Below are positions 7,168-50,165 of a DNA stretch of 64,000 nucleotides, piece by piece; the stretch's first letter is position 1; each line of letters starts with the position of its first letter. The notes beneath the pieces were generated by a model. The model saw only the letters and a list, made by a program, of their open reading frames with translations, ran no database searches and was not told where the DNA came from. Both the position numbers and the translations under genes were made by a program. This stretch comes from an uncultured Armatimonadia bacterium (lineage in GTDB: Bacteria; Armatimonadota; Zipacnadia; Zipacnadales; UBA11051), in the NCBI GenBank assembly GCA_964549395.1, contig CAZJVY010000006.1:6972-70971 (forward strand), read 5' to 3'.

Positions 7168-7217
7168 ACCAGCACAGATGTCTTCGCGGTAGGTAGCTGC
7201 CGAAGGGAGAAGCTGAA

Positions 7218-8732: not shown

Positions 8733-8734
8733 TA

Positions 8735-8992: not shown

Positions 8993-8994
8993 CA

Positions 8995-13446: not shown

Positions 13447-13599
13447 TGCTGTTCTCTTGCAGATGGACAAACGCCGGCCGCTCGCGTGGCCGGCGTTTGC
13501 GTTTGGTGTTTTCCCAATCGTGGAGGCCAAGGCCGCTTGGCCGGCGAAATTGAGCCATCGCGGAAGTCCGATGTACCAGCCGCAGAAGGGGGCAGTCAC

Positions 13600-18494: not shown

Positions 18495-18588
18495 TGATGT
18501 TCAGTTTGCCTGCTTCACCGCTGCAACCATCTTCTGCATAGACGACAGAGCGCCCCCTGATGTTGCAGGAGTTTTCACCCCTGCCGCC

Positions 18589-25407: not shown

Positions 25408-25410
25408 AGG

Positions 25411-31207: not shown

Positions 31208-31222
31208 TATCCGTCTCCCGGT

Positions 31223-31798
31223 CTATTCCTTGGTTCGCAGCAGATACGGCTTGTTTGCCGGCACGCGAACGATGGCATCCGATGGGCATACGTTCGCGAT
31301 GGCGCACTGATTGCAGTTGATGCAGCGGTCATGCCGAATCTGCAGGATGAGCGAGCCGTTCCCGTAATCCCGGCACCCCTTCACGCAGGCTCCGCAGCCG
31401 ATGCACTTGGACTCGTCTATCACGTACTGGTAATAGGGATCCTCAATGAAGCTGCGGCTGATCGCATTGGTGGGGCATCGCTGGTTCTCGGCGCCTTCGG
31501 TGTCATCCGCGCGCTTCTCGGCTAGATAGCCGAAGCAGAGGTCGCAGTACCCGCACATTGCGTACTCGTGCACGCACTTGACTGCCGAGGGGTTCAACAC
31601 ACATGCCGTGGCGCACTTCCCGCATTGCGTGCATTTGGCGGGGTCCACCTGCCACACGTACTCATTGGCGTTCCCCCGAGACACCAGCGCCCCGAGCAAC
31701 CCACCGGTGAACAGCAGACCGGCGCCTCGCGCGGCCTGGGTCAGGAACTCGCGCCGGGTCATCGTCTCGCGCTCGTCTGTGGAAGGCTCTAGGGACAT
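31223..31798 (-). CDS. Tat-exported NapG/MauM-like ferredoxin with four [4Fe-4S] motifs
   Basis: Twin-arginine motif TRREFL. CTQCGKCATAC, CGYCDLC...CP, CIGCGACVKGC, CINCNQCAIANVCP. Confidence 0.7.
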   Translation of the reverse strand: MSLEPSTDERETMTRREFLTQAARGAGLLFTGGLLGALVSRGNANEYVWQVDPAKCTQCGKCATACVLNPSAVKCVHEYAMCGYCDLCFGYLAEKRADDTEGAENQRCPTNAISRSFIEDPYYQYVIDESKCIGCGACVKGCRDYGNGSLILQIRHDRCINCNQCAIANVCPSDAIVRVPANKPYLLRTKE

Positions 31799-32019
31799 TG
31801 CTCTCCTTCGCTTGCGCCAGCCCGTTTCGCCGATAGTGCCTGCGGCAGATGGCAGGCCTCAAAAGCGCCACAACCCCGGCAGATGCCCTGGTTGATGCAT
31901 TCTTCGCTGTTGCGGGTCATCAGCGCGCCGACGCCGCCGCCCAACAGCAACGCAACGCCATACCTGCCGATATCGCGCAGGAATTCACGCCTGGTCATTC
32001 TGCCCGGCTTCTCCAGCAT
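31789..32019 (-). CDS. tiny Tat-signal Cys-rich periplasmic protein (mature part about 40 aa, 6 Cys)
   Basis: MTRREFL Tat motif then CINQGICRGCGAFEACH...EQCP. Overlaps the next gene start by 10 nt. Confidence 0.45.
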   Translation of the reverse strand: MLEKPGRMTRREFLRDIGRYGVALLLGGGVGALMTRNSEECINQGICRGCGAFEACHLPQALSAKRAGASEGEQCP

Positions 32020-32045
32020 CGCGACCTTTCTCCTGGGAACGCCTG

Positions 32046-33062
32046 CTACTTTCGGGCAAACACCTTCACGGTACCCGCCGCCGGGTCCATCACGTAAATG
32101 CGCCCCTCACCGTCCACGGCCAGATCCAGGCCCGCCGCTTTCGGCGAGAAATCGTCCGGCACGGCGACTACACTCTCGAGCGTGCCGTCGCGGTTATGTA
32201 CCTTCACGCGCGGCAGGCCCTTCTCGCTGGTGACTATCCTGCCGTCCGCCAAAACCGCGATATCAGTGGGGTTACAGCAGCCGCAGAAGCCGTCAATCTC
32301 CTGTGATGGCTTGCCCCATGTTGACTTGAGAGTCCCATCCGCCGCGTATGTCCCGACCGCGTGGCGGCCGGGATTGTTGACGATGAGCGTCTGCTCCGGC
32401 CCCAAGGCCACATCGAGATGCGGACTGGGCAGCAGCAGGCCCGGCACACCCTTGCCCTCATCCTTCTCGCCGATCCTGCCCAGCAAGTCGCCGGACTTGC
32501 TGTAGTGCAATACGACGCGGTTTCCGGCATCCCCGACCCAGACATCCTCACCTGAGACAACCAGGCTGGTCAGGTAGGCGTTCTCACCCGGCAGTGTCCA
32601 GCCGGCCTGCACATTGCCCTTGGTGTCGTATGCGACTATCCCCGTGCGCAGGCCGATCCACTCAGTCTCGTCTTCGCCCAGCGCAATTGCGTACGGCGGC
32701 TCAGGCAGTTGACGCTGATAGTTGCAGTGGCCCTGTGCATCGAACACGCGGAGGCCGCTGTCGCCGACCGCATAGAGACTTGCCGCCTCACCGAATGTCA
32801 CCGCGATCCCGCGCGGCTCGTCAAAGCCGGTCGCGATTTGGCTGACTTGCTGGTACTTGACGAGCGCCGGGTCAACCTGCCGCAGTGCGCTCATGTCATC
32901 ATTCGACTGCCGCACGGCGCTTTCGGTATGAGAGCGGATTTCGGAGCGGCTGAGTTCGTAGCAGCCACTGACGGCCACTAGCAGCGATAGAAGAGCGACA
33001 CGCCCAGGCTTCAGGGCCGGGCCGGACTTACTGGCGAGTTGTGAGCCGGTACGCCTGCTCAT
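32046..33062 (-). CDS. NHL-repeat (6-bladed beta-propeller) lipoprotein
   Basis: Lipobox LLVAVSGC. Repeated DG-x-x-Y/V-x-D blades with a CGCCNPTD motif. Confidence 0.5.
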   Translation of the reverse strand: MSRRTGSQLASKSGPALKPGRVALLSLLVAVSGCYELSRSEIRSHTESAVRQSNDDMSALRQVDPALVKYQQVSQIATGFDEPRGIAVTFGEAASLYAVGDSGLRVFDAQGHCNYQRQLPEPPYAIALGEDETEWIGLRTGIVAYDTKGNVQAGWTLPGENAYLTSLVVSGEDVWVGDAGNRVVLHYSKSGDLLGRIGEKDEGKGVPGLLLPSPHLDVALGPEQTLIVNNPGRHAVGTYAADGTLKSTWGKPSQEIDGFCGCCNPTDIAVLADGRIVTSEKGLPRVKVHNRDGTLESVVAVPDDFSPKAAGLDLAVDGEGRIYVMDPAAGTVKVFARK

Positions 33063-33063
33063 A

Positions 33064-34638
33064 TCAGGTTCCCGTCACGTCAACACAGACCATGCTGGTC
33101 AAATCGCGGGCCAGCAACCGGCCGCCAACGATGACCAGCGGGCCCCATGGCTCCGACCCGCTGAGTATCTTCGCCCTCCCGAGCTCCTTATACCCGCCCG
33201 GGCCGGCCTCCACCATCACCAGCTCGCCGGCGTCGCTCATCACGTAGATCTTGCCGTCGGCGATGATGTACGGATTGATGCCGAAACGAGCCGTGCCGCT
33301 TCGCCAGATCGTCTTGCCGCTCAGGTCAATGCAGGAGAGTTCCTTGCTGGGTATGACCCCGTAGATGTGGTCATTGTACAGGATCGGCGTTTGCTGGTGC
33401 GAGCCGAACACTTCAGCGGAAAGCCGCTGCGCGATGGATGCATTGGAGCCGCTGATGCGGATGAATGCCGCCCCCGCGCCGTAGCCGCCGCAGACGAAGA
33501 TGCGGCCGTCGCCGATCGGTACGGCTGACGGGACGTTGGCCGTCTTGACGGTCCACTCGCTGGTCTCCCATGCTAGCGAGCCGTCGCCTGCCGAGACCCC
33601 CACAACGCCGCCGCTGGCCGGATAGACGTACGTCTTCTTGCCGCCAAGGCTGATCGGTACAATCGAGGAATGGGTCATCTGCCAGCCGCGCGGATTGGGC
33701 GTTCGCCAGACTTCCTTGCCCGTCGCCAGGTCCACAGCGACCATCAGCGCGCTGCCGCCCGGCGCGAGAATGACCCGATTGCCGTCAATCAGCGGACACT
33801 GCCCGGCATACCAGGAGGGCACCTGGGCGCCGTACTGGCTGACCATGTCAATCTTCCACTGCACGCTGCCGCCGGCCGTGTCGCAGCACATCACGTGGCA
33901 TTTCGGCCCCAGGCTTACAACATACTTGCCGGTAACCGCAGGGACTGTGCGCGACATGCCATGGTTGCGCTTAACCTCAACCGGATACGACTGCGACCAG
34001 ATCTGTTTGCCGTCAGACAGGGACAGGCAGAGCAGTTCGTCGGCCCCGTTGGCGTGGTCGTAGTCCAGCAGATACACGCGTCCATCGAGCACCGCTGGTG
34101 CCGCATATCCCTCACCAAGCTGGCGCGACCACAGCTTGCGCGGCCGGCCTGCACCCCAGCTATCGGCCAGCGAGATGCGTTCTTTGCTTATGTTGTCGAA
34201 ATCGGCGCCCCTGAAGCGCAGCCAGGCACCAGTAGGAGCGCCGGCACCGGCGGAAGGCGTCGAACCTGCCGTCCCCGCCGCAGATGCCGCTGTGGTTGCC
34301 GCCGCACCCGCACCGGACACAGCAGGCCCCGACGTGGCGGTAGCGGGACCGGCAGCAGGTTGTGATGATGTCGCCTGTCCCGTGACTGCTGCGCGGTCTG
34401 GCAGCCGAGGCAGGACATCGCTTACCTGCGGGGCAGTCCTCAGCCACAACACAACGGCCGCTATCCCGATTGCGGCGACAACCGCCGGTATGCCGACCGT
34501 CACCAACAGATTCGCGCGTCTCCGCCCCTTCTTGCGCCGCACAGGCGCCAGGGATGCCGTATCTGCGGTCCGGCGGCTGCTGCCAAGACGTACAGATGAA
34601 GGTGTGCGACGACTCAACGACCCCGGCCGCTTCTCCAT
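33064..34638 (-). CDS. single-TM-anchored PQQ/BamB-like beta-propeller protein with Ala/Thr/Ser-rich linker
   Basis: TM helix LLVTVGIPAVVAAIGIAAVVLWL. Low-complexity linker. AWLRFRGADFDN then propeller blades. Confidence 0.65.
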   Translation of the reverse strand: MEKRPGSLSRRTPSSVRLGSSRRTADTASLAPVRRKKGRRRANLLVTVGIPAVVAAIGIAAVVLWLRTAPQVSDVLPRLPDRAAVTGQATSSQPAAGPATATSGPAVSGAGAAATTAASAAGTAGSTPSAGAGAPTGAWLRFRGADFDNISKERISLADSWGAGRPRKLWSRQLGEGYAAPAVLDGRVYLLDYDHANGADELLCLSLSDGKQIWSQSYPVEVKRNHGMSRTVPAVTGKYVVSLGPKCHVMCCDTAGGSVQWKIDMVSQYGAQVPSWYAGQCPLIDGNRVILAPGGSALMVAVDLATGKEVWRTPNPRGWQMTHSSIVPISLGGKKTYVYPASGGVVGVSAGDGSLAWETSEWTVKTANVPSAVPIGDGRIFVCGGYGAGAAFIRISGSNASIAQRLSAEVFGSHQQTPILYNDHIYGVIPSKELSCIDLSGKTIWRSGTARFGINPYIIADGKIYVMSDAGELVMVEAGPGGYKELGRAKILSGSEPWGPLVIVGGRLLARDLTSMVCVDVTGT

Positions 34639-34884
34639 TTGTGCCCCACAATGCAGGGCAGCCCCGTTGGCTGACTGCCCTCGAGTTGGCTACTGTGTAC
34701 AGATATGCTATGCAATGTCTGCCATGGTGTCAAGCTCAAGGCACCTTGGCGGCCCTTCAGTCGGAAGCTACCCTCCCCTCTTAGGCAAGAAGGTGCGCCA
34801 GATAGGTCTCTAAGGGGGGCCCACTGGGTCAAATGACGCCCCATTTACCGCCCAGGTTCACACCCTTAACGGCTCAAGACGGAT

Positions 34885-34902
34885 ATGTTTCACGTGAAAC
34901 AT
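34885..34902. promoter_or_regulatory. perfect 18-bp palindrome ATGTTTCACGTGAAACAT in a divergent intergenic region (candidate operator)
   Basis: The left half is the exact reverse complement of the right half. Sits in an AT-richer stretch and is followed by a TTGAC-like hexamer. Confidence 0.4.
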
Positions 34903-35057
34903 TTATTGACCGAACCGCTGCAAGCAGCCTATCAACCGCTCACAGAGGAAAGGCAGGCCCCAAAGGCGAAGAAATGCGCGAACGTAAGCGACGGAACACG
35001 GGGCGGTGGCGAAGTCTGAAGAATGCCTCAACGGATCGTTCGGAGAGCGAAGAACCC

Positions 35058-35912
35058 ATGTATGCGACAGTGGTAATCGCCCGCAGCAGCGCCGGCACCT
35101 CCGAGCGCGCTGCCATCGAGGAGGAACTGGGCGGTCTGTGTGTCGCTCGCGGCCTCGACACGGTGCTGGTGCCGGACCTCTACCACGTGGCCGACCGGAG
35201 CCACATCTGGGAGGTGCTTGCAGCGCTACCCGGGCCGATTGTGGTTTTTGGCCGGCTGTATCCGCGCCCCCTGGAGTGGCTGCTGCGGTCTCACGGTGTC
35301 GGAGAGGACGGCCTGCGTGCATTTGACCTGGGGGCCTATGAGGATGCCCGTAGTGCCCTGAGGGCGGCTTTGCCGGGACAGCCGCAGGAGCCCGGTATCG
35401 CACCGGGCCGCCTTCAGGAGCTGCAGGAAGCTGTTGCGCCGCGCTGGTACCCGCTGGTGGATCGGTCGCGCTGCACCAACTGCCGGCACTGCCTCCAGTT
35501 CTGCATCTTCGGCGTCTATGAGCTTGATGAGGCGGGCCATGTCACGACGAAGAGCCCCGACAACTGCAAGCCGGGCTGTCCGGCGTGCGCTCGCGTTTGC
35601 CCCAACTCGGCGATCATGTTCCCCCTGCACGCGGATGACGAGGCAATCGCCGGCGCTCCTGGCAAGTTCGTAACCATGGACGCAGCGGCCCGCCGCATGT
35701 ACTACCTGCGCACCGGCGCGCGGTGCCCGAAGTGCGGCCTGGACGCAGCAGCGCCTCCAGCGGCGGGACGGGGAGGCGAGAAGTGCGCCGAATGCGGGCG
35801 GCGTCTGCCAGATTCCCACGCGACACCGGCGGAAGCGCCGCGTTCCGAGGTTCTGGACGAGATTGATGCTCTCATCAACGAGCTCGACAATCTCGCCCAT
35901 GGGAGTCAGTAG
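35058..35912 (+). CDS. 4Fe-4S dicluster ferredoxin-domain protein with C-terminal CxxC...CxxC ribbon
   Basis: CTNCRHCLQFC and CKPGCPACARVCP, then CPKCG...CAECG. Start at ATG 35058 with a GGAGAG RBS. Upstream ORF extension is Arg-rich low complexity. Confidence 0.5.
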   Translation: MYATVVIARSSAGTSERAAIEEELGGLCVARGLDTVLVPDLYHVADRSHIWEVLAALPGPIVVFGRLYPRPLEWLLRSHGVGEDGLRAFDLGAYEDARSALRAALPGQPQEPGIAPGRLQELQEAVAPRWYPLVDRSRCTNCRHCLQFCIFGVYELDEAGHVTTKSPDNCKPGCPACARVCPNSAIMFPLHADDEAIAGAPGKFVTMDAAARRMYYLRTGARCPKCGLDAAAPPAAGRGGEKCAECGRRLPDSHATPAEAPRSEVLDEIDALINELDNLAHGSQ

Positions 35913-37427
35913 ATGCCAGGCACCGACGGTGTCCCGATCGTGCTCACCGCCGACCGCACGCTGATGGTCCACTACCGCGTTCTGTTGGACGGTATGGTCG
36001 CCTGCAGCCAGACCACCACAACCCCCTGGCAGATCATGGACAAGGTTCTGATGCCCAGAGCGCCGCACCCGGATGGCCGGGCCGCGTTCGCGCCTCTGGG
36101 GCTGCGGCGGATCGAGGCGGCACTGCTTGCCGGCGGCTTCCAGCACAGCGACGTGGCGGTCGTGGACGATAGCCATCTGTCGGATGTCATCGGGCCTGCC
36201 ACCAGGGCAGTAGCGGTCAGTTCGGGCGAGCCGACGGGGCTGGGCATGAGCAGCTCGACGATGGCGGCGGTCGCCGGCGGCACGATCCAGCCGCAGTTGA
36301 TGTTCGAGCGATTGCTCGGTCGCATCCGCGAGTTGGTGACTGCTCGTGCCCCGCAGGCGAAAGTCGTTCTCGGCGGCTCCGGCGCCTGGCAATTGGCCGA
36401 TGATGCACCTACGCGGCGGAAGCTGGGCATTGACCACGTCGTTGTCGGCTATGCAGAGGGCAACGCGCCGGACGTGTTCGAGTCACTGCTCGAGGGCGAT
36501 GACCTGCCTGAGGTGATGGCGGGCGAGGGCGTGCGGGGAGACGCCATACCTGCAATCCGGGGGGCGAGCGCGATGGGAGCGGTCGAGATCAGTCGCGGCT
36601 GCGGCCTCGGGTGTGACTTCTGCACCATCGCACAGACGCCGATGATGCATCTGCCGCCCGAAACCATCATCGCCGACGCGGAGACTAACGTTGTAGCCGG
36701 AATGACAAGCATCGCGGCGCTCAGCGAGGACTTCTTCAGATACGGCGGCAGCGGCACGCACTGCGATCCCGAGGCCGTCCTGGACCTACTCAGACGGCTG
36801 AGGAAGATTGAGGGATTGCGCCTGATCCAGATTGACCACGCCAACATCTCGAGCATCGCGCAGTATGGTGATGTGGAGTTGGCGCTGGTGCATCGGCTCC
36901 TGGTAGGCGAGAAAGCGCGCAGATCCGCGTGGGTGAATGTGGGAGTCGAGACGGCGTCCGGGGCGCTTCTGGAGGCCAACGGCGGCAGGCCGAAGATGAT
37001 GGGCATACAGCTTGATGAATGGGGTGATATGTGCGCCCGGCAGTTGCGGCGGCTGTGCAGGGCAGGATTCATCCCCATGGCAAGCCTGGTTGTCGGCCTG
37101 CCGGGCGAGACCGATGATGACGTGCAGCGGACGCACGCCTGGGTGCGATCACTGCTGGGGGAGCGTCTGGCGGTGTTCCCGGTGCTTCATGCGCCGATTC
37201 GGGGCCAACCGCGGCGTACCTTGACGGACTTGAGCCGGGCCCAGTGGGCGCTGATCCGGGAGTGTTACCGGCTCAACTTCAAGTGGGTGCCGCGCATGTA
37301 CTGGGACAGCCAGACGGGTGCGGGTGTGCCCCTCAGGAAGCGTCTCCTGCTGCAATTGTTGGCCAACGTTCAGGCGGCACAGTGGCGGGTGCTGCTGGCT
37401 CGCCACGAGCGGAGGGCCGCGACGTGA
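35913..37427 (+). CDS. radical SAM protein with N-terminal B12-binding-like domain (hopanoid-associated HpnJ-like candidate)
   Basis: GCGLGCDFC CX3CX2C motif. Stop overlaps the shc start. Lies in a hopanoid gene context. Confidence 0.6.
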   Translation: MPGTDGVPIVLTADRTLMVHYRVLLDGMVACSQTTTTPWQIMDKVLMPRAPHPDGRAAFAPLGLRRIEAALLAGGFQHSDVAVVDDSHLSDVIGPATRAVAVSSGEPTGLGMSSSTMAAVAGGTIQPQLMFERLLGRIRELVTARAPQAKVVLGGSGAWQLADDAPTRRKLGIDHVVVGYAEGNAPDVFESLLEGDDLPEVMAGEGVRGDAIPAIRGASAMGAVEISRGCGLGCDFCTIAQTPMMHLPPETIIADAETNVVAGMTSIAALSEDFFRYGGSGTHCDPEAVLDLLRRLRKIEGLRLIQIDHANISSIAQYGDVELALVHRLLVGEKARRSAWVNVGVETASGALLEANGGRPKMMGIQLDEWGDMCARQLRRLCRAGFIPMASLVVGLPGETDDDVQRTHAWVRSLLGERLAVFPVLHAPIRGQPRRTLTDLSRAQWALIRECYRLNFKWVPRMYWDSQTGAGVPLRKRLLLQLLANVQAAQWRVLLARHERRAAT

Positions 37428-39307
37428 TCGAGCGACAGAAGCTTGAGGATGCCTTGCGCCTGGCCCGCGAACGCCTCCTGGCGGCCCGTCTTGGCGACGG
37501 CTACTGGGAAGGCCGCCTTTGCTCCTCCGCACTGGCCACCGCAACCGCGATCAGCGCCCTTGCACTGGCGGGAGAGCCGCAGGATGAGGCGATAGTGGCG
37601 CGGGGCATCCGCTGGCTGGAGGCAACACAGAACGCTGACGGCGGTTGGGGGGATACGCCGGACAGTCCCAGCAACCTGGCGACATCCCTGCTGGCGGTTT
37701 CTGCTCTTCGTATCGCCGCAGACATCGCGCAGTCGGACAGTGCGCTTGCGAAGGCAAACAGGTATGTTTCCGGAATGGCAGGAGAAGGGCCGAGTGAACG
37801 AGTAGCCGGAATCAAGGCGGCATACGGGTCGGATCGCACGTTCGCCGTGCCGATTCTAGTCAACTGCGCACTGGCCGGCCTGGTGCCCTGGGACGGCATA
37901 CCCGCGCTGCCGTTTGAGTTGGCCGCACTGCCACAGGGCCTCTACCGCTTTGCAGGGCTGTCGGTGGTCAGCTATGCCCTGCCTGCCTTAATCGCGGTCG
38001 GCCTGGCACTGGACCATTTCACGCCGCCGACAGGCCCACTGGTTCGCCTCATTCGGCGGCTGGTCAACACCGGCATAAGGCGCAAGCTGGAGGCGCTACA
38101 GCCAGAGCATGGGGGATTTCTGGAGGCAACACCGCTTACAGCCTTCGTGGCCATGAGCATCACGGCCGCGTATGGAGCGCAGGAGCCGGTCGTACGGAAA
38201 TGCCTGGAGTTCCTGCGTGCTTCGGTGCGAGCCGACGGCAGTTGGCCGATTGACACGAACCTGTCCGTGTGGGTAACGACGGCCGCCCTGAACGCTTTGG
38301 CTAAGTCAGGCGGCTTGTCGCCGGATGAAGTGGAGCGGACTTGCGCCTGGATTCGGACCGGGCAGTATGGGCACGTCCACCCTTTCACAGGAGCACGACC
38401 CGGCGGATGGGGATGGACGCATCTTGCCGGCGGCGTGCCGGATGCCGACGATACCTCCGCCGCAATCCTGGCGCTGGTGAAGACAGGCGATATGGCCGCA
38501 GTGCCGGCTGGTGTCACATGGCTGGCGAGGTTGCAGAACCCGGACGGCGGCTGGCCGACGTTCTGCCGGGGCTGGGGGCGGCTGCCGTTCGACCGGAGCT
38601 GTCCGGACATAACGGCTCATGCACTGCGCGCACTGCACGCGGCGGCTAGTATGGAGCCGCTTCCCGAGCTGGTAACCTGTGTGGCGCGGGGGATGCGATA
38701 CCTGCTGCGGCAGCAACAGGCTGACGGGTCGTGGCTGCCGTTGTGGTTCGGGAATCAGGCCGCTCCCGGCCGGGCGAATCCCGTACTGGGCACTGCGCGG
38801 GTGCTGATGGCACTTGCGGAATGGGACCCGACAGGCGACCTCGCGACGCGTGGGCTGGAGCACCTGGGGGATATGGAGAGCCAAGACGCGGCACCTGCAG
38901 CGTCCCGGAGAATCGCCGCTTGGACGCGAACGGGTGCAGGAGGCCTGCCGTTTGTGTTGCGGAGGGGGCCTCAATTGCGGACGGCGCTGGCGGAGGCGAT
39001 TACCTACCTGGGGCAGGCCCAGAACCCCGACGGGGGATGGGGAGGCGCGGCCGGGGTGGCTTCCTCGGTCGAGGAGACTGCACTTGCGGTATCAGCATTG
39101 TCGGCTTGGCCACAGGAGACGCGCCAGTCGCTCACCAATGGCGTTTCGTATTTGCTAACGCGGATCGAGAATGGAACCTGGACGCAAGCCACGCCGATCG
39201 GCGTGTACTTCGCCAGACTTTGGTATTCGGAGGAGCTATACCCGGTTATCTGGACAGTGGAGGCGCTCGGGCGGGCCCTGCGGGCGTCTGAACAACTCGG
39301 GTCATAG
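37424..39307 (+). CDS. shc: squalene-hopene cyclase
   Basis: DADDTSAA (DxDDTA catalytic motif), multiple QW/DGGWG repeats. About 628 aa from the GTG at 37424, which overlaps the previous stop (GTGA). Confidence 0.85.
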   Translation: MIERQKLEDALRLARERLLAARLGDGYWEGRLCSSALATATAISALALAGEPQDEAIVARGIRWLEATQNADGGWGDTPDSPSNLATSLLAVSALRIAADIAQSDSALAKANRYVSGMAGEGPSERVAGIKAAYGSDRTFAVPILVNCALAGLVPWDGIPALPFELAALPQGLYRFAGLSVVSYALPALIAVGLALDHFTPPTGPLVRLIRRLVNTGIRRKLEALQPEHGGFLEATPLTAFVAMSITAAYGAQEPVVRKCLEFLRASVRADGSWPIDTNLSVWVTTAALNALAKSGGLSPDEVERTCAWIRTGQYGHVHPFTGARPGGWGWTHLAGGVPDADDTSAAILALVKTGDMAAVPAGVTWLARLQNPDGGWPTFCRGWGRLPFDRSCPDITAHALRALHAAASMEPLPELVTCVARGMRYLLRQQQADGSWLPLWFGNQAAPGRANPVLGTARVLMALAEWDPTGDLATRGLEHLGDMESQDAAPAASRRIAAWTRTGAGGLPFVLRRGPQLRTALAEAITYLGQAQNPDGGWGGAAGVASSVEETALAVSALSAWPQETRQSLTNGVSYLLTRIENGTWTQATPIGVYFARLWYSEELYPVIWTVEALGRALRASEQLGS

Positions 39308-39538
39308 ATGAGTCATAGAGCAAGCCCAGAGATGCCTACAAGATGGGTGCGATGATGGAGATCTGGCGGACTGGCACGCACCTGCAGTCAGACCGTCGCA
39401 TCCAGCGCAATTGACACCGCGGCCGGACAGGTTGTCCGTGGGCAGTTGTTGAACATGGGGCAGGGGACGTGCTACCCTAGTATGAGGACGGCCAATAGTA
39501 GCCGTGAGCATACCGTTGAGGGAGTATAACTTGAGATT

Positions 39539-41299
39539 ATGAGCACTAAGCCCGGCGCCGGGCCGCTACTTATCAGTGACGGCGCGGAAGACATCAAGTC
39601 GGTGCCACAGGATGCCGCCACGCGCGCGGCCATCCGCCGGCGTGCTTGCGATTTGGCCGGCAGCCCTGGACCGAACGGGCCGCCGGTATTTGATGCTCTG
39701 CAGTCCGTGGGGCGGCAGATACTGCAAGGTCTGTCATTGCCGGACAGGTTCCTGGGTTTCGCGATGGTCGCTGCGGATAACGCCGCCTGGGCTGGGGCGT
39801 TCCGAGCGGTGCCGTTTCAGCGCCGGCTGCTGCTGTTGCCGAAGTGTCTGAGCGACCGGGCCCATTGCGAGGGCTGGTATGACTCCGTCGGGCTGCACTG
39901 CGCCGGATGTGGCAGGTGCGTCATATCGGGTCTGAAGCAGCAGGCCGAGGAACTCGGGTACGATGTGGTTGTGGCCGAAGGCACCTCATCGGTGCTGATG
40001 AAGGTGGTGGAGGGCGAGGCGGACGCGATCGTGGGAGTGGCGTGCCTGGACTCACTGCAGCAGTCATTCCAGAGCATTGCGGAGCTCGGCATTCCTCATC
40101 AGGCCATCCCCCTGCTCAATGATGGGTGCAAGGATACGACCGCGGAAGTGGAACTTGTCGCAGAGATGATTGCAGCCCAAGCCGATGAGGGGCCGACAGT
40201 CCAACGCAGCTATCTGCCACTTCTGCGCGAGACGGGCAGCATCTTTGACATGGAGGCATTGACGGATGCGCTTGCTTCCTGCGTCTGTGCGCCGAGCGGG
40301 GACGGGGCTGACCAGGGCCAGTTGGCGGCGACGGACGCGATAGCCCGTGATTGGCTGCAGCGCGGCGGCAAGCGTTTGCGTCCGTTCATCACTTTGTCTG
40401 CCTATGCGGTGGGCAAGCACGGTATGGCCGCATTGTCTCCGGATGCTGAACTGCCGGCCCTGATTCCTCCCGCGATCCGGCGCATCGCGGTGGCGATAGA
40501 GGCACTGCACAAAGCGTCTCTGGTGCACGACGACATCGAGGACGATGATCCCTACCGCTACGGGCAGCCGACGCTGCACCGCACGCATGGGATCGGTCAG
40601 GCAATCAATATCGGGGATTATCTGGTGGGTCTTGGGTACCGTCTGATCTGCGCCCAGGCGTCGGAGTTGGGCGCCGAGTGCATCGCCGACATTCTGGGAC
40701 ATCTGTCGGCTGCGCACCTGCAGTTGTGCTGCGGTCAGGGCGCGGAGCTAATGTGGAGTCGCCGTCGGGGCGGAGAGTTGCGCCCGCTTCACGCCCTGCA
40801 GATCGGCCGCCTGAAGACCGCGCCGGCGTTCGAAGTGGCCTTGTACGCGGGCTTGCGCGCGGCCGAGGCCGGCATTGACGACAGCGTTGTACGCAGTTTC
40901 TCGACATACATCGGTGAGGGCTACCAGATTCGCAACGACTTGAGCGACTGGGATGCCGACGGGGGCAACAAGGTGTCGCTGGGCCAGGACGTGCTCGCCT
41001 CGCGTCCGACCGTGCTGCGCGCATTCGCGCTGGAGGCCGGCGCGGGGAACACGCTCGCGGCACTGCTGGATGCGTCCCCGAACGGGGATGAGGAGAGCGG
41101 TGTTGTTGACCAGGCGCGGAGGCTCTATACGGACACCGGCGCTTTCGAGAAGGCCGAGTTGTTGTATGTGCGGCTGCGGGAGCGGTCGCTGGCGCTGGCC
41201 GACACCGTATCAGATCCTCCGCTGCAGGACCTGCTGCGCTTGCTGGCGCGTATTGTCCTGCCGGAGCGGAACCCGACCCTTGGGGCTGAGCGCCCGTGA
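39539..41299 (+). CDS. polyprenyl synthetase (trans-isoprenyl diphosphate synthase) fused to about 260-aa N-terminal Cys-containing domain of unknown function
   Basis: First aspartate-rich motif LVHDDIEDDD, second RNDLSDWD. N-domain has CEGW...CAGCGRC. Confidence 0.7.
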   Translation: MSTKPGAGPLLISDGAEDIKSVPQDAATRAAIRRRACDLAGSPGPNGPPVFDALQSVGRQILQGLSLPDRFLGFAMVAADNAAWAGAFRAVPFQRRLLLLPKCLSDRAHCEGWYDSVGLHCAGCGRCVISGLKQQAEELGYDVVVAEGTSSVLMKVVEGEADAIVGVACLDSLQQSFQSIAELGIPHQAIPLLNDGCKDTTAEVELVAEMIAAQADEGPTVQRSYLPLLRETGSIFDMEALTDALASCVCAPSGDGADQGQLAATDAIARDWLQRGGKRLRPFITLSAYAVGKHGMAALSPDAELPALIPPAIRRIAVAIEALHKASLVHDDIEDDDPYRYGQPTLHRTHGIGQAINIGDYLVGLGYRLICAQASELGAECIADILGHLSAAHLQLCCGQGAELMWSRRRGGELRPLHALQIGRLKTAPAFEVALYAGLRAAEAGIDDSVVRSFSTYIGEGYQIRNDLSDWDADGGNKVSLGQDVLASRPTVLRAFALEAGAGNTLAALLDASPNGDEESGVVDQARRLYTDTGAFEKAELLYVRLRERSLALADTVSDPPLQDLLRLLARIVLPERNPTLGAERP

Positions 41300-42219
41300 C
41301 GGCGGGCTACCTGCAGTGGCTGGATGCGCTGCTGGAGAGAGGGGCGCAGTCCCTCAGCGAAGCGTTCCGGCAGGTTCAGGTCGGCTACGTCACATCCCCG
41401 CAGTTGCCGGACGGCGGATTCCCCGGACGTGATGGCGGCCCCGACATCTATTACACCGATTTCGGCCTGCGCGTGGTGAGCCTTTTAGATCCGAGTAACG
41501 AGGCCGTGCGCCGGGCGGCTCCATTCGTGCGCGCTGCAGCCGACGGGGTGCAGAACATTGTTGAGTGCTTCTGCCTGCTCAATTGCAGCCGCATGTTGGC
41601 GCGATGCGGGGTCCGAGTGGGCCTCGATACAGAGAGCATTTCACGTATCATCAACGGGCAGCGGCTGGCGGCGGGCGGCTTCGCGCGACCCGGTGGCACC
41701 GGCATCAGCGCCTATAACACCTATATCGGCGGTCTCTGCTATGAGGTGCTGTGTGAAGACACGCGCCAAGTCGCAGCGGCCGCTTCAGCCCTTGGCAGCC
41801 TGCAGGGGGCAGGCGGAGGCTTCAAAGAGCAGCCTGGTGAAGGCTGCGAGCAGACCAGCGCCACGGCAGCGGCCATCGGGTTCCTGCAGATGACGGGGCG
41901 CTGTTCGCGCCAACAGGCGGCGGCAGCGACGGGCTTCCTTCAACTCATGCAATGTGCCGACGGCGGTTTCCTGGCCCACGAACACGCGCCCTGCAGCGAT
42001 CTTCTGTCCACCTTCACGGGCCTGGTCACGCTGGCAGCCCTGGATGCGCTGGAGCGTGTTGACCTGCCCGCTGCAGCCCGGTTCGTCAGAGACGCAGCGC
42101 GTCCGGACGGCGGATTCGCGGCATTCCCGTCTGACGATGTCGGCGATATTGAGTACACGTATTACGGCTTGGCCTGCCTGGCGATATTGCGGTCTGCAGG
42201 CGGCTCGAAGGCGGATTAG
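41296..42219 (+). CDS. prenyltransferase / squalene oxidase (SQCY) repeat protein, half-size alpha/alpha-toroid
   Basis: Repeated G/DGGF(A/P) motifs spaced about 48 aa apart (PDGGFPG, AAGGFAR, AGGGFKE, ADGGFLA, PDGGFAA). GTG start overlapping the previous stop. Confidence 0.55.
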   Translation: MTAGYLQWLDALLERGAQSLSEAFRQVQVGYVTSPQLPDGGFPGRDGGPDIYYTDFGLRVVSLLDPSNEAVRRAAPFVRAAADGVQNIVECFCLLNCSRMLARCGVRVGLDTESISRIINGQRLAAGGFARPGGTGISAYNTYIGGLCYEVLCEDTRQVAAAASALGSLQGAGGGFKEQPGEGCEQTSATAAAIGFLQMTGRCSRQQAAAATGFLQLMQCADGGFLAHEHAPCSDLLSTFTGLVTLAALDALERVDLPAAARFVRDAARPDGGFAAFPSDDVGDIEYTYYGLACLAILRSAGGSKAD

Positions 42220-42310: not shown

Positions 42311-43603
42311 ATGAGGATCATCCACTTTGCTGCGGGAGCGGGGCAGATGTACTGCGGGGCTTGCACCCGCGACTTCGTGCTGGCCCGCGGCCTGATCTCC
42401 CGTGGGCACGATGTGTCAGTCCTGCCGCTCTACACGCCACTGCGCACGGATAGCGCCGAGCCATTCGTGGCAGGTCGCGTGTTCCTCGGCGGCATCAACG
42501 CGTGGCTACAGCAGCAGTCGGCGCTGTTCCGCTATACTCCGGCCTGGCTGGACCGTATCTTTGACTCCCCCGGACTATTGTGGCTGGCATCCGGGTTGGC
42601 CGTCAAGACCAGGCCTCGTGACTTGGGAGCGATGACAGTGTCGGTGCTGGCCGGCACGGAGGGTCGTCAGGTCAAGGAATTCCGCAAGCTCATCAGTCAT
42701 CTGCAGGCCATGCCGCCGCCGGACCTGTTCATCATCACCAACACATTGCTGTCAGGCTTCGCCCAGGAGCTGAAGCGACATTTTGCCGTACCTCTGATCT
42801 GCGGAGTGCAAGGCGAGGATGCCTTCCTTACGGCAATGCCGGAGCCGCACCGGGACAGAGCGCGCGAACTGATGCAGCGCAACTCCGCGTTTATTGACCT
42901 TTTCATCTCGCCGACGCCAGACTACGCGCGGGAAATGGCCGCTTACCTGAGCGTCCCACACGACCGGATGCGGGTGGTGCGCACCGGCATAGTGGCGGAG
43001 GACTATGCCCTCGACGTTCCCCGCGTACGCGAGCCGTTCACCATCGGCTATCTGTCCGTCATTACGCCGGCGAAAGGGCTGGACATCCTGGTGGAGGCAT
43101 GGCGGCTGTTGGCACAGAAAGGCGATAGAGACATAAGGTTGCGCGTCGCCGGCCGCGTGCTGGATAGGGGCCATTGGCGAGGGATACTGAACGCAGTCCG
43201 GAGGGCGACTCTAGCGGCCAGATTCGAATACTGTGGTGAGGTGGACTTCGCCGGCAAGGTGGACTTCCTGCGGCGCTGCAGTGCCTTCTCGGTGCCCGGC
43301 AGGTGCATAGAGCATCGGGGACTGGCGACTATGGAGGCGCTAGCGTGCGGCGTTCCCGTAGTTGTGCCCGATGCGGGTGTCTTCCCGGAGATGATATCGC
43401 GGACGGGCGGCGGTCTGTTGGTGCCGCCGGACGACGCACGGGCGCTGGCTGAGAAGATGATGCTGCTCATGAGTGACCCGGAGAACGCCGACCGTATGGG
43501 GCGCGAGGGAGCTCGAGGGATAGCGGCCCACTACCACGCCGAGCGGTCCGTGGAAGACATGCTGGGGGCGATTGAGGCGGCAATGGATCAGCGGCAGATG
43601 TAG
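42311..43603 (+). CDS. glycosyltransferase family 4 (GT-B, group 1)
   Basis: C-terminal EALACGVPVVVPDAGVFPEMI (E-x7-E). Rossmann GT-B layout. Confidence 0.75.
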   Translation: MRIIHFAAGAGQMYCGACTRDFVLARGLISRGHDVSVLPLYTPLRTDSAEPFVAGRVFLGGINAWLQQQSALFRYTPAWLDRIFDSPGLLWLASGLAVKTRPRDLGAMTVSVLAGTEGRQVKEFRKLISHLQAMPPPDLFIITNTLLSGFAQELKRHFAVPLICGVQGEDAFLTAMPEPHRDRARELMQRNSAFIDLFISPTPDYAREMAAYLSVPHDRMRVVRTGIVAEDYALDVPRVREPFTIGYLSVITPAKGLDILVEAWRLLAQKGDRDIRLRVAGRVLDRGHWRGILNAVRRATLAARFEYCGEVDFAGKVDFLRRCSAFSVPGRCIEHRGLATMEALACGVPVVVPDAGVFPEMISRTGGGLLVPPDDARALAEKMMLLMSDPENADRMGREGARGIAAHYHAERSVEDMLGAIEAAMDQRQM

Positions 43604-43627: not shown

Positions 43628-44881
43628 CTACAGGCCGATGGCTACAGCGCTGATCTTGTGCAGGGCGCGGTAGAAGCCATCGAAGACCTCCACGACGCGC
43701 CTCGCAGTCGCAACTTCCTGACCTTTCCTCCACGTGCCGGAAAGTTGGCCGGCGGCCAAGGTGGCTTCCACCTCCTCCGTCGTCAAGATGTCGGGGGCCA
43801 ATCTGGGAACGATATCGAGAGGATCCTCGATCTTCTCGTGTTGGAGAAGCTCCCAGAATGCGGCCAGTGGTTGGCGGAAGAAGGTGTTCCTGACCCGGTT
43901 CAGTTCCCACGGGATGAGGATTGACGTGTCGAAGTAGGACGGCGCGTTGGCCAGGAAGTAGATACGACCCTTGGTCAGTCGCGCGTACTTGGCGCCGTCG
44001 AAGACCGTCATCGCCAGGTCAACAGGCTGTCGGCTCAATGCCTGCTGCCATTGCGCCGGTGAGGTGCAGGCGGCACCAGGTATGATGGTGATGGCGTCGG
44101 CCAGACGGAGGCCGACTGTCCTTACTGCATCAAAGAGACGCTCCTCGAAATCCGACAGCGCCGGGTCGGAATACAACTCAGGAATCTCGTAGTGCCGCTC
44201 AACTATGTCAAGAGCCTCTGCGAACACGCTTACGTTCGGGAACATGACGGCGGCTCGGCGTAGGGCGTCTATCTTGCCGACGAGAGTTTGATGCCCGAGA
44301 ATGGCAAGGGCCGATTGGACCGGCGGGGGGAAGTAGTGCATCAGGCGACTGTGAAGCGGATATTTGTTTTCGTAAGCGCCGAGGTTAATGGCCGGGTCAA
44401 TCGCGCGGTTGTACGGGCCGTAGTATGCCAGGAACTTCGACAGATTGTACCGTTCATCTTTCGCGTCCCAGGGCCGGCTCGCCAGGGCTTGCGTGACGCG
44501 TGCCAGTCTTTCGGGCTGCGCGGTGTCGTAGAATGTCCACTGCTTGTACTCGGGATGATAGAGCTGGGGCAGCGTGAGTTCGCTCCACGTCAGGCTGACG
44601 CCGGGAAGGTGTTCGAGCCTGCGCGTCCATTCGGGGTGTGCCCTGCAAAGCTCCAAATGCATTTCGCCTACTGCGGCGGAGACGCGGCACCAGTCGTCTG
44701 CCGTCATGCCGTCGGCGCAGATCAGCCGGTAGTCGAAATCGCTCATGCCGGGGATGAGATCCTCAAAGGCCCATTTCCCGGCGATACCCTCCACTTCAGG
44801 AGCCACTGAACGGCATCGCTCGTAGTAGAGCGTGATGAACTCGGCAAAGTCGTTGCGGGGAGCAGGCTCGAAGATCATCAC
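43628..44881 (-). CDS. hypothetical protein with possible nucleotidyltransferase-fold motif
   Basis: IPGMSDFDYRLI matches the hG[GS]...DhD minimal nucleotidyltransferase pattern. Last gene of the minus-strand sugar-modification operon. Confidence 0.4.
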   Translation of the reverse strand: MMIFEPAPRNDFAEFITLYYERCRSVAPEVEGIAGKWAFEDLIPGMSDFDYRLICADGMTADDWCRVSAAVGEMHLELCRAHPEWTRRLEHLPGVSLTWSELTLPQLYHPEYKQWTFYDTAQPERLARVTQALASRPWDAKDERYNLSKFLAYYGPYNRAIDPAINLGAYENKYPLHSRLMHYFPPPVQSALAILGHQTLVGKIDALRRAAVMFPNVSVFAEALDIVERHYEIPELYSDPALSDFEERLFDAVRTVGLRLADAITIIPGAACTSPAQWQQALSRQPVDLAMTVFDGAKYARLTKGRIYFLANAPSYFDTSILIPWELNRVRNTFFRQPLAAFWELLQHEKIEDPLDIVPRLAPDILTTEEVEATLAAGQLSGTWRKGQEVATARRVVEVFDGFYRALHKISAVAIGL

Positions 44882-44938: not shown

Positions 44939-46099
44939 CTACTTCAGCGCGGCTATCGCTTCTCTCAGCGCCCAGGCGACGTATTCCAGGTCCTCGTACG
45001 GCGTGTCGGGGAAGATGGGGAGTTGGAAGACCTGCTCGCACGCCTTCTCCGCAATCGGGCAGTCGCTCTTGTCGTAGTCAATCTTCTCGAAGGCCTCCCA
45101 GCTCCAGGCAAGCGGATAGCACTTGGAGGTGCCGACCTGATAGGTTTCCTGGAGGTGCTTGCGCAGGTCCGCCTCCGAGCAGCCGACCTTGTCGGTATCC
45201 AGCCGGACGGCATACATGTGGCTGGCGTGATTCGGGCCGTGGCCGACCGGCCTGATGATTTCGTCAATATCGCTGAGCAGATCGTTCATCTTCAGCATCC
45301 GCTCGCGGCGCTCGGCGACAACCCTATCGAGCTTGGCCAGTTGGGTTAGGCCGACGGCGTACTGCGGCTTGGTCATGCGGTAGTTGAAGCCGACGGTGAC
45401 GACGCGTAGCGTAGGACCGTACACATAGCCGAAAGTCTTGCGCTGGCGCACCTGCTCGGCGAAGTCGGGGTCATCGGTGGTGACCGCGCCACCCTCGCCG
45501 AGAGTGGTCATGTTCTTATTGCTCTGGAAGCTGTAGCAGGACGCCTTGCCCCGTCCGCCGACCGGTTTCCCCTCGTATAGTCCGCCCGGCATGTGGGCGG
45601 CATCATAGATGATGGGGATGCCCGTCTCCCTGCTGATCTCGTCAAATGCGTCGAGGTCACAGGCCAGGCCGGTATAGTGGACGGGGATGATGGCCCGGGT
45701 CCGGTCGGTGATTTTGGCTCTCACCTTCTCCGGGTGGAGGTTCATGGTAGCCTGGTCAATGTCGGCGAAGACCACCTTCGCGCCGCGTGCCGCTGCACAG
45801 GTCGCCGAGCAGACGAAGGTGAGGGGGGTGGTGATGACCTCGTCGCCCGGCCCGATGCCGAGGACCATCATGCACAGGTCCAGGCCCGTGCCGCAGCTAT
45901 TGACGGCCACGGCATGTTTGGCGCCCTCATGCTGTGCGAAGGCATTCTGGAAATCCGTCTCCTCGGGGAGAGGAAAGAATGTGCCCTCCGGCGTGGCGGC
46001 GCTGCTTATCACCCGCATGGCGGCGTCAACGTCGTCCTGCTCATACAGACCACCCATCGCCTTGAATGGAACCGGGTGGATGTTCATGTCATCGCACAC
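44939..46099 (-). CDS. DegT/DnrJ/EryC1/StrS-family PLP-dependent sugar aminotransferase
   Basis: Typical family layout including the SFQSNKNMTTLGEGG lysine region. Confidence 0.8.
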   Translation of the reverse strand: MCDDMNIHPVPFKAMGGLYEQDDVDAAMRVISSAATPEGTFFPLPEETDFQNAFAQHEGAKHAVAVNSCGTGLDLCMMVLGIGPGDEVITTPLTFVCSATCAAARGAKVVFADIDQATMNLHPEKVRAKITDRTRAIIPVHYTGLACDLDAFDEISRETGIPIIYDAAHMPGGLYEGKPVGGRGKASCYSFQSNKNMTTLGEGGAVTTDDPDFAEQVRQRKTFGYVYGPTLRVVTVGFNYRMTKPQYAVGLTQLAKLDRVVAERRERMLKMNDLLSDIDEIIRPVGHGPNHASHMYAVRLDTDKVGCSEADLRKHLQETYQVGTSKCYPLAWSWEAFEKIDYDKSDCPIAEKACEQVFQLPIFPDTPYEDLEYVAWALREAIAALK

Positions 46100-46120
46100 T
46101 CCTTGAGGTGACCATTTCGC

Positions 46121-48246: not shown

Positions 48247-48275
48247 GGCTGTCCCCTTCCGTCGTGGATTGTAGC

Positions 48276-49973: not shown

Positions 49974-50165
49974 GCCGTCACACCCGCTCTCAGCAAACCC
50001 ACCAGTTGTCCGCACAGCCCTATTCCACGCCATGGCTGCACTGACCTGCCGCTCGCGAGGGGCCTGGAAGCATGCGGAGGCAGGTGCTCTGTGTACCTGC
50101 AGGGAAGTTCGCTAGGAGAACTAAGGGCAACCCATCGAAGAGCAGCCATAGGAGGTTTCTCCCCG

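Follow-up and report, generated by a model that had tools for sequence, protein, structure and literature searches.

A conserved gene cassette that pairs a divergent class II terpene cyclase with a DUF116–polyprenyl synthase fusion, and a possible link to envelope lipids

We analysed a stretch of 64,000 nucleotides (hereafter the window) from an uncultured Armatimonadia bacterium (contig CAZJVY010000006.1, positions 6,972 to 70,971), and describe here a terpene cyclase cassette at window positions 35058–42219. An earlier note, made from the letters without database searches, had described this interval as a hopanoid-type module of five genes. The module itself is real: open reading frame (ORF) and homologue analysis finds five closely packed genes, all in the same direction on the + strand:

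35058–35912, + strand: ferredoxin-type protein; the ORF spans 34833–35912, and homologues favour a start at M76 (nucleotide 35058), the start coordinate also given in the earlier note
35913–37427, + strand: radical S-adenosylmethionine (radical SAM, rSAM) protein; its first base directly follows the ferredoxin stop
37424–39307, + strand: cyclase; the mechanical ORF begins at 37244, homologue alignment favours GTG at 37424, and the gene overlaps the rSAM stop by 4 bp
39539–41299, + strand: DUF116–polyprenyl synthase fusion of 586 residues (Pfam DUF116 and polyprenyl_synt)
41296–42219, + strand: barrel protein of 307 residues with a GTG start (Pfam Prenyltrans), overlapping the fusion stop by 4 bp

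The cyclase and fusion genes are separated by an intergenic gap of 231 bp (39308–39538). The domains of all five proteins exceed their Pfam cut-offs, except for Fer4 of the ferredoxin-type protein. Our Pfam scan took in 47 window proteins. Apart from ORFs nested within a larger gene (opposite strand or another frame), these include nearly every ORF of at least 200 residues. Among these 47 there is no SQS_PSY/HpnC/HpnD protein and no HpnE-type amine oxidase, so that the earlier claim of a module devoid of squalene-synthesis genes in cis holds for the window; squalene synthase is likewise missing from the conserved neighbours of the cassette. Nor is there a flavin mono-oxygenase or epoxidase among the 47 proteins or the conserved neighbours.

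The third gene encodes what looks, on sequence grounds, like a catalytically plausible class II (protonation-type) βγ terpene cyclase of a family other than squalene-hopene cyclase (SHC). Pfam SQHop_cyclase_N and SQHop_cyclase_C both score above cut-off, four Q-x-x-DGGW repeats are present, and the catalytic motif reads DADDTS (residues 340–345, nucleotides 38441–38458). The counterpart of SHC His451 is H399, in DITAH (nucleotides 38606–38620). Motif and histidine are invariant or nearly so in 18 homologues and align with SHC D374–D377 and H451. A family profile alignment retains the counterparts of SHC D447, H451, W312, W489, F601 and Y612, with conservative swaps at F365 (to W), Y420 (to F) and F605 (to W). 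SHC Y495 and Y609 are replaced, and the Y609 position is an invariant Glu.

The protein nevertheless scores far below the SHC models. Against the squalene-hopene cyclase equivalog TIGR01507 it reaches 117.7 bits (cut-off 431.1), and against the squalene/oxidosqualene cyclase model TIGR01787 it reaches 122.7 bits (cut-off 322.7). Alicyclobacillus acidocaldarius SHC in the PDB is matched at 67 bits by the single sequence (phmmer) and at 135 bits by the family profile. Because these scores fall so far short, and because the DxDD, the histidine and most cavity aromatics are kept, the enzyme appears to be a functional protonation-type polycyclase of another family. Thus the earlier note was right about the DxDD (read as a canonical DxDDTA, here DADDTS) and the QW repeats, and wrong to name the gene shc and the module hopanoid-type. 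We rejected a canonical SHC/hopanoid reading on the hidden Markov model (HMM) cut-offs, the PDB similarity, the absence of hpn genes from the window and the identity of the rSAM protein. Moreover, the full DxDD, the lack of a linked epoxidase and the presence of oxygen-sensitive Fe-S and rSAM proteins as neighbours argue for an alkenyl rather than an epoxidised substrate.

The window copy of the cyclase carries a 48-residue in-frame insertion (HLGDMESQ...ALAEAIT; residues 480–527, nucleotides 38861–39004) that is found in none of the 17 aligned homologues. The insertion lies within the helix before the last QW repeat, has no flanking repeats, and is identical in sequence in independent JGI and NCBI/ENA assemblies.

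The second hallmark of the cassette is the fusion protein. Its N-terminal extension, formerly taken for an unknown domain, is Pfam DUF116 (PF01976), which matches residues 62–211 at 108.6 bits (cut-off 25) over profile positions 7–155 of 155. Seven cysteines (C103, C110, C121-x2-C124-x2-C127, C169 and C197; nucleotides 39845–40129) are invariant in 51 genome-derived homologues. The domain has a flavodoxin/Rossmann-like fold and is a putative Fe-S-type domain. This agrees with Makarova et al., who predicted that DUF116 is a flavodoxin-like, metal-binding electron-transfer domain, and its fusion to a polyprenyl synthetase was already noted in Pirellula staleyi Psta_0175 (PMC5898192). Our domain resembles the known family (PF01976, COG1852, arCOG02078) in its full-length match and in its CxxCxxC plus further cysteines. 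By contrast, archaeal members are stand-alone membrane proteins beside sulfite/nitrite reductase or ArsA-type genes, whereas here the domain is fused to a synthase. The searchable literature yielded no functional work on DUF116, nor on the bacterial cyclase clade discussed below.

The synthase domain (PF00348; residues ~267–574; 121.1 bits, cut-off 27) contains GGKRLRP (nucleotides 40364–40384), a first aspartate-rich motif (FARM) DDIED (nucleotides 40529–40543), RYG from nucleotide 40556, and a second aspartate-rich motif (SARM) NDLSD (nucleotides 40934–40948). GGKRxRP, the FARM (HDDIEDDD) and the KT motif (LKT) are conserved as in elongating trans-prenyl diphosphate synthases. The earlier note had advised a check of the chain-length-determining residues, and this was informative: positions −5 and −4 before the FARM are Ala or Ser in 159 of 171 close homologues, as in long-chain synthases (4lob, LHTATLVHDD) and unlike the Tyr/Phe of archaeal geranylgeranyl diphosphate synthases (GGPPS). 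Such small residues imply a deep pocket, and we propose a dedicated long-pocket synthase.

Two other motifs deviate from the textbook form. The RRG that canonically follows the FARM is RYG in all 171 close homologues, and in 67 of the 73 representatives that we read from the wider fusion family. In farnesyl diphosphate synthase structures, the second Arg of RRG contacts the diphosphate of isopentenyl diphosphate (IPP). The SARM is less constant. About 10% of close homologues have DDLxD, a complete cassette from Phycisphaerae (locus L085) has DDLLD, and among full-length representatives of the wider family with a readable SARM, DDxxD is counted 46 times and NDxxD 32 times. With DDxxD back in the SARM of L085 and of many wider relatives, the deviation that stays constant is RYG.

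A first-Asp-to-Asn change in the SARM has been linked to irregular coupling in chrysanthemyl diphosphate synthase (PMC10960109, bioRxiv 10.1101/169417), and in the only enzyme tested the analogous D-to-N mutant lost irregular coupling (PMC10960109). We considered whether the NDxxD SARM, which hardly varies in the first 51 sequences, proves irregular coupling of the chrysanthemyl type. The members with DDxxD and the behaviour of that mutant speak against it.

DUF116 matches 766 clusters (50% identity) in a library of 1.84 billion proteins. The closest 150 representatives are mostly fusions of 500–690 residues, and the shorter ones are probably fragments. These 150 (P0363–P0511) comprise a class of ~550–690 residues with an NDxxD or DDxxD SARM and a class of ~480–550 residues with mostly DDxxD; both have RYG.

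Which of the five genes belong together? We searched 85 loci with the window proteins by tblastn, and used as denominators the loci with enough flank. The fusion gene is present in 49 of 65 loci, nearly always directly downstream of the cyclase. The ferredoxin is found at 40 of the 62 loci with enough upstream flank, the rSAM gene at 18/62 and the barrel gene at 19/53. In Gimesia the cassette is reduced to ferredoxin, cyclase and fusion, with no rSAM, and in Anatilimnocola to cyclase and fusion with unrelated genes on both sides; these minimal forms lie on contigs that are complete or long. In Gimesia the ferredoxin is truly orthologous, in the N-terminal domain as well as in the dicluster domain. 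Because the cassette shrinks to these genes, its core is the cyclase and the DUF116–synthase fusion, usually with the ferredoxin. The rSAM and barrel genes are accessories, and a reading of the rSAM enzyme as a core part is not supported. The extended form with rSAM and barrel occurs in Armatimonadota, Verrucomicrobiia, Brocadiia, Phycisphaerae, Pyrinomonadaceae and some other Planctomycetota. Five Armatimonadota loci (L002, L006, L007, L009 and L052) have an extra gene between cyclase and fusion that is missing from the window, where the 39308–39538 gap lies; in L002 (11746–13140) it is called as a PQQ_2 β-propeller of 464 residues.

The cyclase family is widespread. A homologue search of 5.8 billion proteins returned at least 8000 matches, and the best 120 cyclase matches listed (47–63% identity) come mostly from Armatimonadota, with some Verrucomicrobiae and Planctomycetes. 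Scanning one genome per species, we found the family in at least 585 species genomes; it is very common in Planctomycetota, Armatimonadota and Verrucomicrobiota. Cultured carriers include Thalassoglobus neptunius KOR42 and Anatilimnocola sp. NA78, and carriers among metagenome-assembled genomes (MAGs) include Gemmata, Gimesia, Schlesneria, Pirellula, Brocadiia, Phycisphaerae, Pyrinomonadaceae, Sumerlaeota and Chthoniobacteraceae. Full-length homologues with 42–55% identity are present in Gemmata, Gimesia, Schlesneria, Pirellula, Thalassoglobus, Verrucomicrobiia and Pyrinomonadaceae. Homologue lengths run from 560 to 690 residues.

These features recall a clade that has been described before. 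Santana-Molina et al. (2020, PMC7306690) and McShea et al. (2025, PMC12324236) report an 'SHC-like' clade of 550–700 residues with its catalytic residues kept from the Planctomycetes–Verrucomicrobia–Chlamydiae (PVC) and Fibrobacteres–Chlorobi–Bacteroidetes (FCB) groups, Spirochaetota and Acidobacteriota. According to these papers the function of the clade 'has not been demonstrated', and they flag its substrate as an open question. The tree in PMC12324236 puts the clade outside SHC and oxidosqualene cyclase (OSC), as sister to epoxy-polyprenyl cyclases, which use head-to-tail substrates. For the planctomycete genes, PMC7306690 says that genomic context hinted at a precursor other than squalene.

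The window cyclase almost certainly belongs to this clade, judging from taxon overlap and gene context. It is a divergent βγ cyclase with the length, the catalytic residues and (through its homologues) the taxa of the clade. A non-squalene-precursor context is also seen, in that the DUF116–synthase fusion adjoins the cyclase in 49/65 loci. Our description goes further than what is available of the two papers, which treats the cyclase only, leaves the context unspecified in the main text and does not list Armatimonadota among the taxa named. Nor does that text mention the Fe-S fusion hallmarks, the ferredoxin, the rSAM protein, the barrel resembling protein-prenyltransferase β subunits, the GT4 glycosyltransferase, the ATP-binding cassette (ABC) exporter or the NAD(P)H module described below.

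The remaining three cassette proteins can be placed with varying precision. The ferredoxin-type protein has an N-terminal α/β domain, a 2×[4Fe-4S] domain and a C-terminal helix. Its Fer4 dicluster matches (Pfam, NCBIfam) lie under the curated Pfam cut-offs, yet the full eight-cysteine pattern is present (residues 214–256 of the long ORF, nucleotides 35472–35600) and is conserved in 21 homologues.

The rSAM protein matches PF04055 at 35.7 bits, with CxxxCxxC at residues 230–237 (nucleotides 36600–36623), and these three cysteines are the only ones conserved in its homologues. Its best NCBIfam match is TIGR04013 (archaeal B12/rSAM, MJ_1487 family) at 74 bits, far from the cut-off of 251. None of the HpnH, HpnJ, HpnP and HpnR equivalogs of NCBIfam matches at E≤0.01, so an rSAM enzyme of hopanoid type is not supported. 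The best PDB matches are RimO/TM_1862; the PDB profile search returned RimO/MiaB-type cores only, and matched no lipid rSAM enzyme with a solved structure. The earlier label was 'B12-like'. There is no PF02310 (B12-binding) match at E≤0.001, but the N-terminal 180 residues are colinear with the B12 domain of another window protein, encoded at 336–1820 (25% identity, E 8e-6). Because of this colinearity the architecture is class-B-like by sequence, with an N-terminal Rossmann-type domain and an rSAM core. We regard the protein as a putative accessory tailoring enzyme of the cassette.

The protein at 336–1820 (− strand), 33 kb from the cassette, is a genuine B12-binding rSAM enzyme (PF02310, 62 bits; PF04055, 67 bits). 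Its closest NCBIfam models are TIGR04072 (ladderane-type 'lipid biosynthesis B12-binding/radical SAM'; 251 bits, cut-off 360) and the Trp 2-C-methyltransferase (258 bits, cut-off 500), and it matches HpnJ and HpnR weakly.

The 307-residue protein had been described as half a cyclase toroid. It is one complete α/α barrel (predicted model, pLDDT 96.7), closest in fold to the protein-prenyltransferase β subunits (protein farnesyltransferase and protein geranylgeranyltransferases I, II and III), with which it shares the α/α-barrel architecture at 15–18% identity. Conserved residues are R45, D50, Y52, Y53, R59, D235, D284, E286 and Y290. These include no DxDD and no recognisable D/C/H zinc triad, and we saw no gene for a protein-prenyltransferase α-subunit-like protein in the cassette. 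Two identities were therefore rejected: half a cyclase or a β-only (MstE-like) cyclase, given the full barrel, the missing acid motif and the closer likeness to prenyltransferase β subunits; and a true protein prenyltransferase, given the missing zinc triad and α subunit. The gene is translationally coupled to the synthase gene, and the protein may be an accessory subunit that binds or hands over a prenyl diphosphate.

The module reaches well beyond 35058–42219. The genes concerned, with the families that identify them, are:

42311–43603, + strand: GT4 glycosyltransferase (Pfam Glycos_transf_1, Glyco_trans_4_4), probably part of the module (head-group glycosylation)
17271–18494 and 18589–19794, − strand: BamB/PQQ_2-like β-propellers (Pfam, NCBIfam), in a putative export block at 17271–23890
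19731–23126, − strand: duplicated FtsX-type permease of 1131 residues, in the putative export block
23123–23890, − strand: LolD/MacB-like ABC ATPase, in the putative export block
23836–25407, − strand: NuoG/HoxU-type 2Fe-2S protein with GltD-like flavoprotein (Pfam, NCBIfam)
25411–27900, − strand: NuoE, NuoF and ferredoxin fusion (Pfam, NCBIfam)
27897–29915, − strand: β-propeller, in a set of divergently transcribed genes linked within Armatimonadota only (as are the four that follow)
29912–31207, − strand: NapH/MauN-type membrane polyferredoxin
31223–31798, − strand: small ferredoxin
32046–33062, − strand: NHL-repeat protein
33064–34638, − strand: β-propeller

Orthologues of the GT4 enzyme (38–57% identity) stand beside the cassette in Armatimonadota and, differently placed, in Planctomycetota. 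The gene sits between those for synthase and barrel in L040 and L071 and upstream of the cassette in L013, and in L019 a GT4 gene comes right after that for the cyclase. In a Planctomycetota MAG (L005) the same four export-block proteins, full length and at 47–64% identity, follow the barrel gene, and subsets of the block follow it in L013, L014, L029, L034 and L040 in an order unlike that of the window. Overall, export and redox orthologues of 44–70% identity adjoin the cassette in the Planctomycetota MAGs L005, L013 and L014. L005 and L013 have the permease at full length, the ABC ATPase is also found in L029 and L034, and in L040 the permease (33% identity) and the ATPase (49%) are less closely related. 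Orthologues of the NuoEF/GltD genes (54–70% identity) are rearranged beside the cassette in L005 and L013 and also occur in the Armatimonadota locus L002; we take 23836–27900 to be a putative NAD(P)H-linked electron-input module. The recurrence of export and redox genes in rearranged order across phyla points to function rather than inherited synteny. The genes at 27897–34638 are another matter. Their order is kept in L001/L002, L006, L007, L009 and L052, a linkage that could reflect shared ancestry rather than function, and their membership in the module is uncertain.

Unusually many BamB/PQQ_2-like propellers and an NHL protein lie within 17271–34638 (− strand), interleaved with ferredoxins and the ABC exporter. 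The cassette has propeller genes at its flanks in L005, L013 and L002 as well, and propellers may be periplasmic partners of the exporter.

What might such a cassette make? We lean, with some reserve, towards the view that this locus represents a cassette, widespread and conserved, for a cyclised, possibly glycosylated, exported lipid derived from a polyprenyl chain, and that it is not a hopanoid operon. The terpenoid-cyclase module of unusual composition suspected in the earlier note is borne out, and a non-standard polycyclic terpenoid is its best reading. From gene content, motifs, folds and conserved linkage we infer the following chemical steps. Starting from IPP and an allylic primer, the synthase would build a dedicated polyprenyl diphosphate, all-trans and probably longer than C20. 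The cyclase would use the central Asp of DADDT to protonate the double bond at the chain terminus and would fold the alkenyl chain into a (poly)cyclic product. Cyclisation would occur at the omega end, with the head group retained, which would leave the GT4 enzyme and the prenyl-diphosphate-type barrel something to act on. Electrons may flow from the NuoEF/GltD-like module through the ferredoxin to the fused DUF116 Fe-S domain, which would use them to reduce either the prenyl substrate or the product. The rSAM enzyme, where present, might tailor the hydrocarbon skeleton by methylation or C–C bond formation; the barrel might bind or pass on the prenyl diphosphate; the GT4 enzyme might glycosylate the head group; and the LolD/MacB-like ABC system, with the β-propellers, might carry the lipid to the outer envelope.

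For the pairing of synthase and cyclase, the best functional analogy that we know is the Bacillus sesquarterpene pathway (the heptaprenyl diphosphate synthase HepS/HepT, YtpB and SqhC), in which a dedicated long-chain synthase feeds a divergent SHC homologue with a C35 chain that is not squalene. It is an analogy only in part. Bacillus SqhC groups with SHC and not with the clade of the window cyclase, the class IB terpene synthase YtpB is absent here, and neither an Fe-S domain nor a ferredoxin or rSAM enzyme takes part in the Bacillus route.

Several points weigh against a cyclised polyprenyl lipid. Membership in the SHC-like clade is argued from taxon overlap and gene context. The cyclase stands without an adjoining fusion gene in 16 of the 65 loci with flank, mostly Gemmataceae. 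The change from RRG to RYG falls on the Arg that binds the IPP diphosphate in farnesyl diphosphate synthase, so ordinary elongation with IPP is not assured. The SARM, too, is NDLxD rather than DDxxD in ~90% of close homologues, and its Asn aligns with the first Asp of the GGPPS motif. Furthermore, part of the chemistry must be missing from the model, because plain elongation followed by cyclisation offers no obvious role for an Fe-S domain. Finally, the substrate could possibly be squalene made by genes outside the 64-kb window.

The Fe-S domain is the starting point of the alternative that survives best, although we consider it doubtful. Here the fusion would be a redox-coupled enzyme that ionises farnesyl diphosphate (FPP) or geranylgeranyl diphosphate and then reductively couples two units or eliminates diphosphate, leaving a hydrocarbon for the cyclase; in the coupling variant the outcome would resemble that of squalene synthase with neither HpnCDE/Sqs nor NADPH. 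Such an enzyme would explain why the fusion is obligatory and why RYG is invariant; a SARM that is mostly NDLxD also counts in its favour. Synthase and Fe-S domain always come as one protein, and the ferredoxin stays with the pair even when the rSAM gene is gone, as in Gimesia, so that the core holds a path for electrons for which no other acceptor is evident. The seven cysteines could form one cluster with four Cys ligands and another with three and an open iron site, as in IspH and IspG. No squalene synthase lies in cis within the 64 kb, lineages with SHC and no known squalene synthase exist according to PMC7306690, and in a Bipolaricaulota isolate a DUF116 gene has a polyprenyl synthetase, SHC, HpnH and IspH as its neighbours (bioRxiv 10.1101/2025.11.21.689855).

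However, the same protein argues back. The SARM Asn is dispensable, as the DDLLD of L085 and the 46-to-32 majority of DDxxD in the wider family attest, and the one enzyme in which the analogous D-to-N mutant was made lost irregular coupling through it (PMC10960109). GGKRxRP, FARM and KT are kept as in ordinary elongating enzymes, a hydrocarbon product would leave the GT4 enzyme and the barrel with no obvious target, and Fe-S-dependent prenyl coupling is without precedent.

An amended form of the earlier interpretation fares worse, and we judge it improbable. It would make the enzyme a divergent squalene cyclase supplied with squalene by hpnCDE or sqs genes at some other genomic locus; the fusion would provide FPP, and the rSAM enzyme and ferredoxin would modify a hopanoid-like product. 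This idea fits the conservation of DxDD, of the QW repeats and of most aromatic residues in the SHC cavity, as well as the presence of HpnCDE in cultured planctomycetes that have the SHC-like clade (PMC7306690), and our inspection covered 64 kb of the genome. Yet the cyclase falls about three- to four-fold under the HMM cut-offs for SHC and squalene cyclase, and the tree in PMC12324236 sets the clade outside SHC/OSC and beside head-to-tail polyprenyl cyclases. Supplying FPP needs no tight pairing with a dedicated long-pocket synthase. The rSAM protein belongs to no Hpn rSAM family, and the window has no hpn gene.

A comparison with hpn clusters tells the same two-sided story. A βγ class II cyclase with DxDD and QW repeats is common to both, and there appears to be a parallel logic of cyclisation, rSAM tailoring, glycosylation and outer-membrane export. 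By contrast, the window lacks HpnC/D/E, its cyclase is far below the SHC cut-offs and its rSAM protein is unrelated to HpnH/J/P/R. It has a GT4 enzyme where hpn clusters have the HpnI type, and an ABC/FtsX exporter where they have the resistance–nodulation–division protein HpnN. The DUF116–synthase fusion and the dedicated ferredoxin have no hpn counterpart.

The last alternative, a specialised-metabolite cluster (meroterpenoid or terpenoid glycoside) in which a prenyl chain is attached to, or cyclised on, a non-lipid scaffold and the ABC system exports a secreted compound, gains something from the secondary metabolites made by the sister clade (Lon15, AtoE, Bra4, PlaT2; PMC12324236), from the frequency of GT4 enzymes and ABC exporters in natural-product clusters and from a barrel that resembles prenyl-transferring enzymes, but is made improbable by the absence of polyketide synthase, non-ribosomal peptide synthetase, aromatic-pathway and UbiA-type transferase genes from window and conserved neighbours, by a multi-phylum spread that is largely colinear within phyla and includes two-gene minimal forms (more typical of a core envelope function), and by an exporter of LolD/MacB type with BamB-like propellers. 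The sister enzymes do use head-to-tail polyprenyl substrates, which would suit a dedicated synthase such as the one here (PMC12324236). Their substrates, however, are epoxidised by an oxygen-dependent mono-oxygenase and their genes lie in actinomycete natural-product clusters, whereas the window has no epoxidase and its cyclase keeps the full DxDD.

A bolder reading can also be stated, which we would call speculative and do not expect to hold: that the core is a self-contained, oxygen-independent route to a new class of polycyclic isoprenoid envelope lipids by way of Fe-S-coupled reductive prenyl chemistry, be it a coupling independent of squalene synthase or the reductive loss of diphosphate.

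The cyclase clade is already known; within the searchable literature, the make-up of the cassette, the RYG and seven-cysteine hallmarks, the barrel resembling prenyltransferase β subunits and the linked exporter and redox module are new. The cassette also gives DUF116 its first functional context. It defines a minimal unit of two or three genes (cyclase, DUF116–synthase fusion and ferredoxin) that makes the substrate question testable, and cultured hosts with the minimal unit exist in Gimesia, Thalassoglobus neptunius KOR42 and Anatilimnocola sp. NA78. The answer would matter beyond these organisms. As PMC12324236 and PMC7306690 indicate, the substrate and product of the SHC-like enzymes would constrain the evolution of alkenyl- versus epoxide-using cyclases and hence the oxygen history of triterpenoid synthesis. 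An abundant and unrecognised cyclic lipid, with its cyclase in at least 585 species genomes, would be of consequence for envelope biology. On the bolder reading, should the substrate be a regular polyprenyl chain of C30 or more, tricyclopolyprenol-type lipids could result, the long-sought precursors of the orphan tricyclic terpane (cheilanthane) biomarkers, and this might bear on the assignment of orphan terpane biomarkers in sediments and oils (PMC9247107).

Some features of the window stand apart from the cassette. An Rfam scan of the 64 kb gave zero matches, and promoter plus terminator matches in the window occur only at chance level. A sugar block at 44939–49466 (− strand) encodes a DegT-type aminotransferase, a GFO/IDH/MocA oxidoreductase, a polysaccharide deacetylase and a GT9 heptosyltransferase. 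Its linkage looks incidental, because the last three have no orthologues in the other loci (bar a weak GT9 match at 22%); the aminotransferase has only matches of 25–33% identity, in Planctomycetota loci. Three ORFs have no Pfam match: 50091–53768 (+ strand, 1225 residues), 43628–44881 (− strand, 417 residues), for which there is no NCBIfam match either, and 62005–63981 (− strand, 658 residues). In keeping with the lineage near Armatimonadota that best matches and synteny suggest, the region 2703–16749 holds two heparinase II/III-like giants (1014 and 1087 residues), T2SSF, T2SSE and DUF1559/N-methyl pseudopilin-type proteins, a set typical of PVC bacteria and their relatives.

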